NCBI RefSeq assembly: GCF_056712565.1
Contig: NZ_CM160072.1
DNA: 64,000 bases
Reading direction: 5' to 3' (one strand)
In this document: piece by piece, positions 18,017 through 23,208 of the stretch
Numbering within the stretch: the first letter of the stretch is position 1
Layout of the letters: each line of letters starts with the position of its first letter
Made by a program: the position numbers and the translations under genes
The notes under the pieces: model-generated
Told to the model about the DNA's origin: nothing
Databases searched by the model: none
Seen by the model: the letters and a program-made list of their open reading frames with translations, nothing else

Positions 18017-19276
18017 ATGACGGATTCAATTCCATCAGGTTACAAGCCGCTGACATGTGACACGCTGCCGGGTTATCTCTCGTCCAGACTGACCCCTTCA
18101 TGCGAACCGGGAGGGTTACCTGAAGAGTGGAAAGTTTCAGAAGTGGGGGACGGAAACCTGAACATGGTGTTTATCGTTGAGGGGACACATAAAACCATCA
18201 TTGTAAAACAAGCTCTGCCCTGGCTTCGTGCCGGGGGCGAAGGATGGCCTTTATCTCTGAGCCGTGCGGGCTTTGAGTACAACGTCTTATGTCAGGAAGC
18301 CAAGTACGCGGGTCACACACTGATTCCGCAGGTCTATTTTTACGACCCGGAAATGGCGCTGTTTGCCATGGAGTATCTGACTCCTCACGTGATTCTGCGT
18401 AAGGAACTGATTAACGGTAAAAAATTCCCTAAACTAGCTGAAGATATCGGCAGATTTTTAGCACAGACTCTCTTCAATACGTCTGACATTGGCATGTCAG
18501 CAGAACAGAAAAAAGCGCTTACTGCCGAGTTCGCGTTGAATCATGAGCTGTGCAAAATTACGGAAGATCTGATCTTCACAGAGCCCTATTACAACGCTGA
18601 ACGGAATAACTGGACTTCTCCTGAGCTGGACGATGCCGTCCATAAGGCCTGGGCTGATGTAGAGATGATCCAGGTTGCCATGCGTTATAAGTACAAATTT
18701 ATGACAGAAGCGCAGGCATTGTTACATGGCGACCTTCATTCAGGCTCAATCATGGTGACCGACACGGATACCAAAGTGATTGATCCGGAGTTCGGTTTCA
18801 TGGGGCCAATGGCGTTTGATATCGGCAACTATATTGGCAACCTCCTGCTGGCGTACTTCTCACGCCCTGGGTGGGATGCGAATGAGCAACGTCGCGCTGA
18901 CTATCAGGAATGGCTGCTTCAGCAGATTGTCCAAACCTGGTCCGTTTTCACCCGGGAGTTCCGCCAGCTCTGGGACAACAAAACACAGGGCGACGCGTGG
19001 TCGACAGAAATGTATCAACAGAACAGGGCCGCTCTTGAGGACGCACAGGATCAGTTTTTTGCCACGCTGCTTGAAGATTCCCTGGTGAATGCCGGCATGG
19101 AAATGAATCGCCGGATCATTGGTTTTGCTGGCGTTGCCGAGCTGAAACAGATTGAAAATACAGAGCTTCGCGCAGGATGTGAACGACGTGCATTGACCAT
19201 GGCGCGCGATCTTATCGTCAATGCCCGCCAGTTTAAAAATATGGATTCCGTCATCCAGTCTGCGAAGGTTAAGTAA
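18017..19276 (+). CDS. mtnK: Methylthioribose kinase-family sugar kinase (MtnK-like; likely 5-deoxyribose/5-methylthioribose kinase)
   Basis: 419-aa ORF with APH-like kinase fold motifs (HGDLHSGSIMV, DPEFGFMGP); AAGGAG RBS. Confidence 0.8.
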   Translation: MTDSIPSGYKPLTCDTLPGYLSSRLTPSCEPGGLPEEWKVSEVGDGNLNMVFIVEGTHKTIIVKQALPWLRAGGEGWPLSLSRAGFEYNVLCQEAKYAGHTLIPQVYFYDPEMALFAMEYLTPHVILRKELINGKKFPKLAEDIGRFLAQTLFNTSDIGMSAEQKKALTAEFALNHELCKITEDLIFTEPYYNAERNNWTSPELDDAVHKAWADVEMIQVAMRYKYKFMTEAQALLHGDLHSGSIMVTDTDTKVIDPEFGFMGPMAFDIGNYIGNLLLAYFSRPGWDANEQRRADYQEWLLQQIVQTWSVFTREFRQLWDNKTQGDAWSTEMYQQNRAALEDAQDQFFATLLEDSLVNAGMEMNRRIIGFAGVAELKQIENTELRAGCERRALTMARDLIVNARQFKNMDSVIQSAKVK

Positions 19277-19285
19277 GAGGTCATT

Positions 19286-20401
19286 ATGAATATTAAAGGT
19301 AAACACTATCGTACGGTCTGGGTTTCCGGGGATGGAAAAGCGGTAGAAATCATCGATCAGACTAAGTTGCCTTTTAAGTTCGAGGTGGTGGCGCTTACCT
19401 CTGCGGAAATGGCCGCTACGGCTATTCAGGATATGTGGGTTCGTGGCGCTCCGCTTATTGGTGTCGTTGCAGCCTATGGCATCGCGCTGGGAATGAATCA
19501 CGATGCCAGTGACATGGGTCTGCAGCGTTACTATGACCTTCTTATCAAAACCCGACCAACGGCAATTAATCTCAAATGGGCCCTCGACAGGATGATAGAC
19601 ACACTGAAGGATCTCTGTGTATCAGAGCGCAAGGATGTGGCCTGGGCGCTGGCGGCAGAAATTGCCGAGGAAGATGTCGCGTTGTGTGAACAAATTGGAT
19701 TACATGGTGCAGAAGTCATCCGCGAAATAGCCCAGAAAAAACCGGCCGGGAGTGTGGTCAATATCCTGACACATTGTAACGCAGGCTGGCTGGCGACTGT
19801 AGACTGGGGAACCGCGCTTTCTCCCATCTACAAAGCGCATGAAAACGGAATCCCTGTTCACGTCTGGGTGGATGAAACGCGGCCACGTAATCAGGGCGGA
19901 CTCACGGCATTTGAACTGGGCTCACACGGTATTCCTCACACCCTGATCGCCGACAACGCGGGTGGCCACCTGATGCAACACGGTGACGTTGATCTCTGCA
20001 TTGTTGGGACCGATCGAACCACGGCCAGAGGGGATGTCTGTAATAAAATTGGTACCTATCTTAAGGCGCTGGCGGCCCATGATAACCATGTTCCCTTCTA
20101 CGTCGCGTTACCTTCTCCCACTATTGACTGGACTATCGAGGACGGAAAAAGCATTCCGATTGAGCAACGTGACGGAAAAGAGCAGTCCCATGTCTATGGG
20201 ATAAACCCTCAGGGAGAATTGAGCTGGGTCAATACCGCCCCTGAAGGAACCCGTTGTGGGAACTACGCTTTCGACGTCACGCCTGCCCGATACATTACCG
20301 GCTTCATTACTGAGCGGGGAGTCTGTGCTGCCAGTAAGTCAGCGCTGGCGGATATGTTTGCTGACCTGAAGAGTAAAGCACTCCAGGGGGAACAGCATTA
20401 A
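19286..20401 (+). CDS. mtnA: MtnA-like (eIF-2B-related) sugar-1-phosphate isomerase
   Basis: 371-aa ORF, family-typical sequence (…[11 protein letters not shown]…, …[21 protein letters not shown]…). Confidence 0.8.
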
Positions 20402-20431
20402 AACAGCGGCCATTGCTATTAAGGATCAGGA

Positions 20432-21176: not shown

Positions 21177-22181
21177 ATGTTTATCGTGGAATCGTATGCT
21201 GTCGCCATAATAATGTGTTTTATTACCATGATTTGCTGGGGTTCATGGGCGAATACAACTAAACTTGTCAGCAATAAAAAATGGGAGTTCCCTCTATTCT
21301 ATTGGGATTATTCAATTGGATTATTGCTGTGTTCTTTGTTATTTGCCTTCACGCTGGGTTCTATGGGCGAAGCCGGTCGCAGTTTTATACCTGATATTCA
21401 GCAGGCGAGCAGCAGTAGTCTGATGTCGGCAATACTGGCAGGGATTATCTTCAATATTTCCAATATTCTTCTGGTCGCTTCTATTAATCTTGCCGGTATG
21501 GCGGTAGCTTTTCCTGTGGGTGTGGGGCTGGCACTGGCTCTGGGTGTGATCACCACCTATATCGGCAATCCGCAGGGCGATCCGCTCATTCTGTTCCTCG
21601 GTGTCGTCTGCGTTGTGATCGCCATTATTTTTACCGCGATAGCCTATGGTCGTGTCACGCAGGAGGCGGATAAATCTCGCCGTAATAAAGGTCTCATTAC
21701 TGCCATTCTGGCGGGTATCATCATGGGATGGTTTTTCCGCTTCCTGGCGGACTCCATGTCTGACAATTTCAGCCAGCCTGCCAGCGGTCTGATGACGCCT
21801 TACTCAGCACTTGTTCTGTTTGCCGTGGGGCTGTTTTTGTCGAACTTTGTCCTTAACAGGCTGGTCATGAAAAAACCTATTTCAGGAGAACCGGTCAACG
21901 GGAAAATGTATTTTTCCGGGAGTTTACGGGATCATGTTTGCGGCTGGCTGGGCGGTATGATTTGGTGTGTCGGTCTGGCATTCAGTCTGATTGCGTCTGG
22001 TCAGGCGGGGTATGCCATTTCCTACGGTCTGGGACAGGGGGCCACAATGATTGCCGTGATCTGGGGAGTCTTCATCTGGAGAGAATTTGCCAGTGCGCCA
22101 GCCGGAACCAATAAACTGCTGCTGACCATGTTTATTTCATACATTGTGGGTATTGTTCTTATTATCGCCGCTAATCAATAA
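21177..22181 (+). CDS. Polytopic membrane permease (DMT/RhaT-like sugar transporter family)
   Basis: 334-aa highly hydrophobic ORF with ~10 predicted TM segments, last gene of the cluster. Confidence 0.6.
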   Translation: MFIVESYAVAIIMCFITMICWGSWANTTKLVSNKKWEFPLFYWDYSIGLLLCSLLFAFTLGSMGEAGRSFIPDIQQASSSSLMSAILAGIIFNISNILLVASINLAGMAVAFPVGVGLALALGVITTYIGNPQGDPLILFLGVVCVVIAIIFTAIAYGRVTQEADKSRRNKGLITAILAGIIMGWFFRFLADSMSDNFSQPASGLMTPYSALVLFAVGLFLSNFVLNRLVMKKPISGEPVNGKMYFSGSLRDHVCGWLGGMIWCVGLAFSLIASGQAGYAISYGLGQGATMIAVIWGVFIWREFASAPAGTNKLLLTMFISYIVGIVLIIAANQ

Positions 22182-22185
22182 AATC

Positions 22186-22224
22186 CTGCCCCATATCTAC
22201 ATGGGGCAGTTGTTCATTCTTTTA
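22186..22224. terminator. Hairpin terminator between convergent permease gene and yjhU
   Basis: CTGCCCCA-8 nt loop-TGGGGCAG followed by T-rich tract. Confidence 0.6.
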
Positions 22225-23208
22225 GTGTGGTAATTCACACGCCAGCAAAAACTCTGCCGTTCCTTCATCAACAATCAGGTCCGTGACATATCCTCCCAGC
22301 AGGGCACCCAACGTTGCGTCATAGCCTCTTTCCCCACCAGCAAGGAAGATCTTCCGTTCAATCTGCCTTAGCTGAGCCAGACTGATTCCCAGAATACGCT
22401 GGTCAACATCAGCCACGACGGGCATCCCTTCCTTGTCATAGAAGCGACCACAAATGACACCTACTGCGCCTAAATCCCGATACGTCTGCATTTCCTTCTT
22501 ATTCAGCACGCCCACCCGAATCAGGGGATTTTCATCAAGCGCGTTACCCACGACAAAAAAGGCTTTCGTACAGCGAGTCAGAACGTCAAAATTCGATCGA
22601 ATAATAGGCTCTGCCTGTAACTCCATGGCCAGTCTGGCGCTTGATACCACGGCGGGCACGTGCAGCGAGGCGACACGGCCTGAAAGCTTGTAGGCGATTT
22701 GCGATGAGGATTCAATGATCGTCAGGTCTGGCTGAGATGGCATGGAACCGAGCATCTGTATAACGGTGACATTTTTACATGACTTCGGCGTCATGGTTTT
22801 GCTCATCTGATGGATTGTTCTTCCCCAGGCAACCCCCAGCACATCACCATTCTCAATCACCTGATTCAGATACATGCCACCGGCACGTGAAAGGCGAGTC
22901 CGCATCAGCTTTGTATCATCACGTTTTCCGGCATGTTCGCCATCCGGCACGATGATCACTCTCTGGAGATTGAATTTATCGCGAATTTGCAAAGCAGCGT
23001 CGATAGAGCCAAAGACATTCACATCCAGGTTGATATGAACCAGTCCATTTTCCCGGGCTGTTTGCAGGTATTTGACAACCGTGACGCGGGACACCCCCAT
23101 GATAGCTGCAACTTCAGTCTGGCTTTTACCTTCCTGATAGTACAGCCATGTTGCATGAAGTACGGGATCATCATTGAACAGGCTGCTGTTTGTTTGATCT
23201 CTATCCAC
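22222..23208 (-). CDS. yjhU: SorC/DeoR-family sugar-responsive transcriptional regulator
   Basis: 328-aa ORF with N-terminal HTH and sugar-binding domain; synteny with yjhF. Confidence 0.8.
   Translation of the reverse strand: MDRDQTNSSLFNDDPVLHATWLYYQEGKSQTEVAAIMGVSRVTVVKYLQTARENGLVHINLDVNVFGSIDAALQIRDKFNLQRVIIVPDGEHAGKRDDTKLMRTRLSRAGGMYLNQVIENGDVLGVAWGRTIHQMSKTMTPKSCKNVTVIQMLGSMPSQPDLTIIESSSQIAYKLSGRVASLHVPAVVSSARLAMELQAEPIIRSNFDVLTRCTKAFFVVGNALDENPLIRVGVLNKKEMQTYRDLGAVGVICGRFYDKEGMPVVADVDQRILGISLAQLRQIERKIFLAGGERGYDATLGALLGGYVTDLIVDEGTAEFLLACELPH

Follow-up and report, generated by a model that had tools for sequence, protein, structure and literature searches.

In Escherichia coli K-12 the regulator gene yjhU lies directly next to an IS1 and has no obvious target operon, which raises the question of what YjhU regulates and through which DNA site. 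We analyzed a 64,000-nucleotide stretch of contig NZ_CM160072.1 (assembly GCF_056712565.1), the whole of which we call the window, in which yjhU is convergent with four genes: mtnK, mtnA, ald2, plus one for a permease (Table 1). An earlier note on this DNA had taken the four genes to be an operon of the dihydroxyacetone phosphate (DHAP) shunt and YjhU to be its cognate regulator. All five open reading frames (ORFs) were where that note had placed them: the ORF table was exact and the RefSeq annotation of strain 7/2 agrees. The region is very probably the E. coli DHAP-shunt operon (mtnK-mtnA-ald2-permease) together with its repressor MtnR (YjhU), a system that is already known, both operon and regulator having been published between 2020 and 2025. 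We add two further proposals, to which we jointly give a probability of about 0.5: that MtnR uses a bipartite, TTTACAWWTGTAAA-like operator, spaced at about two helical turns and found from the Vibrionaceae to the Enterobacterales, and that yjhU is an accessory gene that is an orphan in K-12.

The window carries the characterized system itself. This follows from direct comparison with the ATCC 25922 locus, which was 99.54% identical over 17277-24736 (7.46 kb) with an identical MtnR; there were one, two, two, and three amino acid differences in MtnK, MtnA, Ald2, and the permease, respectively. The final 109 bp before the mtnK ATG were the same as in ATCC 25922, and the only single-nucleotide polymorphisms (SNPs) within the final 300 bp were at 17875 and 17907. 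Strain 7/2 was 100% identical across the queried interval, 17700-23300, and is annotated with the same five genes. The locus has the same chromosomal position as in ATCC 25922, with a remnant of the leuX island on one side and yjhF on the other. Inside the locus the differences were allelic only, whereas upstream of 17277 ATCC 25922 has a glycosyltransferase fragment and the window has a truncated cbtA. The truncated cbtA ORF (YeeV-type toxin; 17179-17277) stops at 17277. At this position, which is also where the window becomes homologous to ATCC 25922 and to Citrobacter sp. On2M, the CP4-like part of the leuX island gives way to the DHAP-shunt module. No observation spoke against the identification of either the operon or its regulator.

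Published genetics show that YjhU regulates this operon. Huening et al. 2025, who renamed yjhU mtnR, found that MtnR represses the operon without substrate, that operon transcripts on glucose rose by about 5 log2-fold when mtnR was deleted, and that mtnR on a plasmid restored repression (PMC12632272). The work was done in ATCC 25922 and had the outcome that the earlier note predicted for a yjhU deletion. The regulon is the same in the window, where MtnR has no amino acid differences and the region of the regulated promoter, P1, is the same (last 109 bp identical, two SNPs upstream).

By its linkage, the regulator is part of the shunt module rather than of the xylonate gene set. A scan of species-representative genomes with MtnK gave 14 loci, which were then searched by tblastn with the five window proteins. 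An orthologue of YjhU was beside mtnK-mtnA-ald2 in Citrobacter (99% identity), Providencia rettgeri (89%), three Vibrio species (79-80%), Aliivibrio (66%), and five Morganella loci (59-61%). The one locus of the 14 in which the search did not find it was that of Xenorhabdus, on a contig of 7.9 kb. Orthologues of yjhF/G were beside yjhU only in E. coli and one Citrobacter. The homology of C. amalonaticus to the window was limited to 17735-23457, from the promoter through yjhU. Our conclusion rests on this linkage of yjhU to mtnK-mtnA-ald2, mostly without yjhF/G.

The same data bear on whether the main targets of YjhU might be the xylonate genes yjhFGHI, which run in the same direction, or core genes like efeUOB, with the DHAP-shunt link being secondary. 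yjhU is downstream of yjhI-H-G-F on the same strand, and efeU was also upregulated in the mtnR-deletion transcriptome (PMC12632272). However, the YjhU orthologues of Providencia, Morganella, Vibrio, Aliivibrio, and C. amalonaticus occur with mtnK-mtnA-ald2 but without yjhF/G. In addition, the box motif described below was absent upstream of efeU and of yjhU itself, there were zero YjhU peaks by ChIP-exo (chromatin immunoprecipitation with exonuclease treatment) in K-12 (PMC6237786), and yjhU was present in only 1601 of 5426 complete genomes, 1232 of which also had shunt genes. We consider control of yjhFGHI or efeUOB as the main role of YjhU to be improbable.

MtnR was assigned to the 'DeoR family' with E. 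coli DeoR, GlpR, and FucR (PMC12632272). Its domain content points instead to the SorC family, as the earlier note had stated: YjhU matched Pfam PF04198 (Sugar-bind; E 1.1e-79) over residues 64-323, and helix-turn-helix (HTH) models over residues 21-57. There was no DeoR/GlpR-type HTH or C-terminal sensor domain (which we take to be PF08220 and PF00455) among the 20 Pfam domains found for YjhU at E <= 10. In the same window sgcR, unlike yjhU, is annotated as DeoR/GlpR. The best solved homologues of YjhU were B. subtilis DeoR, SorC, LsrR, and CggR, the nearest being B. subtilis DeoR (8r7y; E 1e-41, full length). By sequence MtnR is a SorC-family and not a DeoR/GlpR protein, which corrects the published assignment. 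E. coli DeoR, GlpR, and FucR, like MtnR, repress sugar catabolism; phosphorylated intermediates release them, and they often act alongside CRP, but they are a separate protein family, whereas MtnR has the SorC-type PF04198.

B. subtilis DeoR, the SorC-family repressor of dra-nupC-pdp, is a closer guide to how MtnR might work. The two proteins have S-R-x-T residues of the recognition helix in common. A tetramer of B. subtilis DeoR occupies a bipartite operator of 39 bp, the right half of which is TTTACATATGTTCAA, and the effector of the protein is a phosphorylated deoxypentose (PMC11229326). This right half resembles the boxes upstream of mtnK. We propose that a phosphorylated intermediate of the pathway would free MtnR from DNA. 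YjhU is not an orthologue of B. subtilis DeoR, because it scored 210 bits on the Bacillus DeoR equivalog model (NCBIfam), which has a cut-off of 420. The operators also differ in position: that of B. subtilis DeoR extends from -60 to -21, and the predicted MtnR boxes lie over or after the -10.

Comparison across genera identified a candidate operator for MtnR. The DNA upstream of the operon could not be aligned among E. coli, Citrobacter, and Providencia apart from a footprint at about 17935-17982. The footprint contains, in order, TCACA, box 1, the hexamers GATAAT/TATAGT, and box 2, and, when anchored on TCACA, the same order was found in Morganella, Vibrio, Aliivibrio, and Xenorhabdus. Box 1 hardly varied among E. 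coli, Citrobacter, and Providencia (TTTACAWTTGATAA). A box matrix was trained without any E. coli or Citrobacter sequence, and box 1 (17946) was its top match in the whole 64-kb window, at 16.1 bits. In a consensus-free footprint analysis, box 1 was the top 14-mer of the E. coli upstream region (11.43 of 14, versus a null maximum of 11.00 in 30 shuffles), and with Morganella as the reference the score was 12.33, versus a null maximum of 10.67. Every lineage had a palindrome at the place of box 2 (Providencia, TTTGCATATGTAAA; Morganella, TTTACATTTGTAAA; Aliivibrio, TTTACAAATGTAAA), with box centers 20-22 bp apart across lineages and 21 bp apart in E. coli. In Vibrio and Aliivibrio, where mtnR is divergent, there were also matrix matches of 12-17 bits in the second intergenic region, beside mtnR, which was not used in training.

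Based on the footprint, the matrix matches, and the binding of the B. subtilis DeoR tetramer to a bipartite operator (PMC11229326), we propose that MtnR would bind as a dimer of dimers (tetramer) to box 1 and box 2, TTTACAWWTGTAAA-like elements with centers 21 bp apart. Both boxes overlap the core promoter or sit just downstream of it, whichever transcription start holds.

Several points weigh against this operator model. Box 2 of E. coli is symmetrically diverged and scored -1.2 bits on the cross-genus matrix, the spacing of the boxes is not fixed (20-22 bp), and AT-rich palindromes are easily found in promoters. A scan of the efeU upstream region of K-12 with the box matrix gave a best match of 7.9 bits, which is unconvincing. 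The published transcription start site (TSS), at about 17945, misfits the -10 hexamers that are conserved across genera. Finally, a different operator has been published, the dyad CAAAT/ATTTG, printed with a spacer of N9 and proposed by visual inspection (Huening et al., PMC12632272).

The bipartite box model differs from the published dyad, which shares with box 1 only the central ATTTG. If MtnR bound the dyad and not the two boxes, its site would be the semi-palindrome CAAAT-N8-ATTTG at 17938-17955. E. coli and both Citrobacter have this sequence intact, and box 1 is centered on its right arm, ATTTG. However, the CAAAT arm was not conserved in Providencia (CATTA), Morganella, or Vibrio, though an MtnR orthologue is linked to the operon there, and the peak of the consensus-free footprint was TTTACATTTGATAA and not the dyad. 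We therefore regard the dyad as unlikely to be the MtnR site.

The earlier note had proposed a different element upstream of mtnK, two TGTCACA motifs 35 bp apart. Both copies are present (17933-17939 and 17968-17974), and there is a third on the minus strand at 18056-18062. The window has 16 copies of TGTCACA, and the probability by chance was about 0.125 for a pair that close and about 0.007 for three copies within 130 bp. Although the cluster of three might suggest that the pair is the repeated recognition element of the regulator, both copies vary in Citrobacter and Providencia (CGTCACA, CATCACA, and GATCACA for the first; TGTCATA, TTTCACA, and TTGCATA for the second), and therefore the heptamer is not conserved as a repeat. 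Only the TCACA of the first copy was conserved across genera, and the third, intragenic copy was kept only among close relatives. We think it very unlikely that TGTCACA is a repeated recognition element: the first copy belongs to a putative CRP half-site and the second is the left arm of box 2.

Three other candidates were considered. The third TGTCACA is inside mtnK in CTGACATGTGACAC, which matches the reverse complement of box 2 at 11 of 14 positions. A test of synonymous-site conservation gave no support for this box-2-like element (18050-18063); it was kept only in E. coli and Citrobacter and so is probably just coding sequence. Autoregulation of mtnR through a box was rejected: the yjhU upstream region (23209-23554) had no match above 5.2 bits. 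About 300 bp upstream of mtnK there is a perfect 12-bp palindrome, GTACATATGTAC (17719-17730), that was the fourth-best match to the box matrix in the window (13.5 bits); the corresponding sequence of Citrobacter sp. On2M is AATACATGTGTATA. The palindrome could serve MtnR as a distal, auxiliary site. A 126-bp fusion was fully regulated without it (PMC12632272).

Huening et al. 2025 found that mtnK, mtnA, ald2, and the permease gene behave as one operon, induced about 7.5 log2-fold on 5-deoxyribose (5dR), with the regulated promoter P1 no more than 126 bp from the ATG, in the interval from -66 to -126 (PMC12632272). They also showed binding of CRP to the promoter fragment and a need for CRP in growth on 5dR, with cAMP-CRP required for activation (PMC12632272). 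The CRP-like sequence ATCTACATGTGTCACA is a candidate CRP site. Its TCACA (17935-17939) was invariant in E. coli, Citrobacter, and Providencia, and was found as TGNTA-N6-TCACA in Morganella, Vibrio, and Aliivibrio. A scan with the CRP consensus, allowing up to three mismatches, gave no enrichment in the window (231 matches versus 247 expected), and the conserved site itself has four mismatches; a simple consensus match thus cannot place CRP.

The position of the TSS is in conflict between the published and the comparative evidence. GATAAT was invariant in E. coli, Citrobacter, and Providencia; TATAGT was the same in E. coli and Citrobacter and was TATACT in Providencia. A promoter consensus scan gave TTCAAA-N18-AATAAT (17916-17945) and GTGTCA-N17-GATAAT (17932-17960), and the AATAAT (17940-17945) was not conserved in Providencia and C. 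amalonaticus. By primer extension, the P1 TSS was placed '72 bp upstream of mtnK', or at about 17945, with CRP sites at -35.5 and -17.5 and a -10 under the 17938-17955 dyad (PMC12632272). We tried the published TSS (-72), -10, and CRP positions on the sequence, and no single placement fit them all. In Morganella and Vibrio the CRP-like site is 21-22 nt upstream of TATAAT or TAGTAT, a class II position. By homology, this spacing would make TATAGT the -10 in E. coli, with a start near 17974, which conflicts with the primer-extension start at about 17945.

The AAGGAG ribosome-binding site that the earlier note had read was found upstream of mtnK. An Rfam search of the whole window found no riboswitch or other RNA element in the long mtnK upstream region. 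The sole match at the gathering threshold was IS102 RNA (RF00124, 74.6 bits) at 10391-10627, in the region of the gene for the autotransporter Ag43 (agn43), which is at about 10647-13766 by collinearity with strain 7/2.

The second proposal concerns how K-12 came to have yjhU without a target. In K-12 MG1655, the insertion sequence (IS) IS1F is 98 bp past the yjhU stop codon and none of the four operon genes is present. The right inverted repeat of IS1F (...CATTACC) is followed directly by GACCATGTT, which is the window sequence from 22124 onward; the left flank is GGGGATTTC, and comparison of the two flanks showed no 9-bp target duplication at IS1F. From 22124 onward, K-12 is 99.97% identical to the window. 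Because the right end of IS1F abuts 22124, what remains in K-12 is the final 58 bp of the permease gene, the hairpin that follows it, and yjhU. An IS1F end on truncated DNA without a target duplication is the mark left by a deletion or rearrangement associated with an IS and not by a simple insertion. These results agree with the IS1-associated loss of the operon that the earlier note had suggested. A single IS1-associated deletion would have removed the operon from K-12 along with its promoter and operator, leaving yjhU as an orphan.

We determined the distribution of these genes in 5426 complete E. coli genomes. yjhU was present in 1601 and yjhG in 1620; any part of mtnK-ald2 was present in 1232 and at least 80% of it in 1076. 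The exact K-12 junction between IS1F and the permease remnant was found in 357 genomes, which are 357 of the 369 that have yjhU but no shunt genes. yjhU is an accessory regulator, with a frequency of about 30% among complete E. coli genomes. As the set of genomes with yjhG is almost the same size as that with yjhU, the whole yjhUFGHI region (yjhF-yjhG-yjhH-yjhI and the sgc genes are at 23209-32300) is accessory and not core as the literature states. Many otherwise identical E. coli genomes have insertions of the IS66 family (ISCro1, ISEc23) or the IS3 family (IS1203) within the operon, and 156 genomes keep only part of mtnK-ald2; the operon is thus often inactivated.

The deletion also offers an explanation for the ChIP-exo result. 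The authors of that study attributed the absence of YjhU peaks in K-12 to a transcription factor that was inactive under the basal condition used (PMC6237786). It may be that there are no YjhU sites in K-12 because the operator was deleted with the operon.

The enzymes of the operon are those of the DHAP shunt. Pfs nucleosidase, encoded elsewhere, frees 5-deoxyribose or 5-methylthioribose (MTR) from 5'-deoxyadenosine or methylthioadenosine (MTA); MtnK phosphorylates C1, MtnA isomerizes the product to the ribulose-1-phosphate, and Ald2 splits 5-deoxyribulose-1-phosphate or methylthioribulose-1-phosphate into DHAP and acetaldehyde or 2-methylthioacetaldehyde (PMC10986504, PMC12632272). The ATCC 25922 cluster enables growth on 5-deoxyribose, MTA, and 5'-deoxyadenosine, and confers the same growth on K-12 when supplied in trans (Huening et al. 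2024, PMC10986504); this growth is respiratory (PMC10986504, PMC12632272). Since the pathway was characterized at a locus 99.54% identical to the window, the kinase, isomerase, and aldolase are the DHAP-shunt trio, as the earlier note had recognized, and growth on 5-deoxyribose, which it had proposed as a check, has been published for that locus. From the 99.5% identity, we infer that this strain would grow on 5-deoxyribose, MTA, and 5'-deoxyadenosine.

Protein family calls, made with the curated NCBIfam cut-offs (equivalog and subfamily models), gave the same picture. MtnK scored 522.5 bits over its full length on the equivalog TIGR01767 (cut-off 275), making it an MtnK-type kinase, and its nearest solved chains were 2pyw (deposited as an uncharacterized protein) and the methylthioribose kinase 2olc. 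MtnA was identified as the isomerase by TIGR00512 (411 bits versus 279) and NF004326 (463 versus 271); its nearest solved structures are MTR-1-phosphate (MTR-1-P) isomerases. The aldolase passed the fuculose-phosphate aldolase subfamily model NF005984 (365 bits versus 264) and was below both the fucA equivalog (317 versus 400) and the mtnB equivalog (68.5 versus 137). Against solved structures it scored 274 bits with E. coli FucA (1FUA) and 117 bits with the Protein Data Bank (PDB) entry 6BTD, which we take to be B. thuringiensis DrdA. The aldolase is a close paralogue of E. coli FucA.

The names that RefSeq gives to MtnK and MtnA follow the universal methionine salvage pathway, to which both enzymes are common, and a cluster of that kind would feed an MtnB-type dehydratase and return sulfur to methionine with no aldolase shunt. 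The third enzyme does not fit, with 68 bits on the MtnB equivalog (cut-off 137) and 365 on the fuculose-phosphate aldolase subfamily, and neither the ORF table nor the RefSeq annotation has mtnB/C/D-like genes in the cluster. The class II aldolase replaces the MtnB dehydratase, as in the E. coli-type DHAP shunt. Moreover, the sulfur of MTA is not significantly recycled and accumulates as 2-methylthioethanol (PMC10986504). Methionine salvage is largely refuted by these results, and we consider it extremely unlikely.

The chemistry of the shunt is shared with B. thuringiensis, in which DrdK, DrdI, and DrdA reportedly salvage 5-deoxyribose (Beaudoin et al. 2018). In both systems a kinase, an isomerase, and a class II aldolase act in turn to yield DHAP and acetaldehyde. 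However, because the E. coli aldolase is far nearer to FucA than to 6BTD, we conclude that the Bacillus Drd system is a chemical analogue and not the source of the E. coli cluster. The role of the B. thuringiensis pathway is detoxification and not use of a carbon source (PMC12632272).

The permease is a 10-transmembrane, DMT-type protein with weak family matches: TIGR00776 (RhaT/GlcU) at 34.6 bits versus a cut-off of 319.6, and, in Pfam, Ureide_permease (E 1e-9) and Sugar_transport (E 5e-6). Its gene was co-induced about 7.5 log2-fold with the enzyme genes in ATCC 25922 (PMC12632272), and it is a putative importer of free 5-deoxypentose (5dR or MTR). In Vibrio and Aliivibrio, a ribose/arabinose-type ABC transporter (ATPase, permease, and binding protein) upstream of mtnK replaces the DMT permease, and a gene for a FucU/RbsD-like mutarotase is first in the operon (loci L005, L006, L007, and L014; for example, L006:2795-6935). 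In the window, ald2 and the permease gene are separated by 103 bp, within which a hairpin with a 10-bp stem (21104-21126) has a terminator-like score when read on the minus strand; in the plus-strand mRNA of the operon it could form a stem between the two cistrons.

The earlier note had also proposed that the operon and yjhU share a terminator. The genes are convergent and the hairpin between them is stable on both strands, with folding energies of -16.6 kcal/mol (plus) and -20.4 kcal/mol (minus) and z scores of -4.3 and -6.0; no shuffled sequence folded as well. On neither strand is the T-run beside it continuous (plus, TTGTTCATTCTTTT; minus, GATTTTATTG). The convergence and the hairpin were as described; the hairpin is a putative terminator common to the operon and yjhU.

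Table 1. Features of the DHAP-shunt locus and its upstream region, in window coordinates.
Feature	Position	Strand	Size	Description
Non-coding region upstream of mtnK	17277-18016	+	740 bp	Conserved; part of the published '799-bp 5'-UTR' (5' untranslated region); holds P1 and P2
CRP-like site, ATCTACATGTGTCACA	17924-17939	+		Perfect right half TCACA at 17935-17939; includes first TGTCACA
Box 1, TTTACATTTGATAA	17946-17959			Predicted MtnR half-operator
-10-like hexamers	17955-17967	+		GATAAT (17955-17960) and TATAGT (17962-17967)
Box 2, TTGTCACATGACAA	17967-17980			Predicted second MtnR half-operator; perfect 6-2-6 palindrome; contains second TGTCACA
Shine-Dalgarno sequence, AAGGAG	18004-18009	+		7 nt before mtnK ATG, read from sequence
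mtnK	18017-19276	+	419 aa	5-methylthioribose / 5-deoxyribose 1-kinase
mtnA	19286-20401	+	371 aa	MTR-1-P / 5dR-1-P isomerase
ald2	20432-21073	+	213 aa	Class II aldolase; RefSeq name 'L-fuculose-phosphate aldolase'
Permease gene	21177-22181	+	334 aa	RefSeq name 'GRP family sugar transporter'
Permease 3' remnant retained in K-12	22124-22181	+	58 bp	Directly abuts right end of IS1F; deletion scar
Terminator-like hairpin	22186-22209	both		Between convergent stop codons of permease gene and yjhU
yjhU = mtnR	22222-23208	-	328 aa	SorC-family repressor of promoter P1

Elsewhere in the window, a 296-bp segment in the fimE-fimA interval (45601-45896) was inverted relative to strain 7/2, with flanks that were colinear at >99.8%. 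From its position, this segment is the fimS phase-variation switch, in opposite orientation in the two assemblies.

The operon finding itself adds no new biology. Strains that carry the operon are mostly extraintestinal pathogens, and, as already published, the pathway gives extraintestinal pathogenic E. coli lineages, including ST131, carbon from 5'-deoxynucleoside waste in glucose-poor sites. Our analysis adds a testable model of the MtnR operator and a SorC assignment that indicates the right structural template for MtnR. It also offers an explanation for YjhU, a 'y-gene' regulator of K-12, as an orphan whose operon and operator would have been deleted by IS1.

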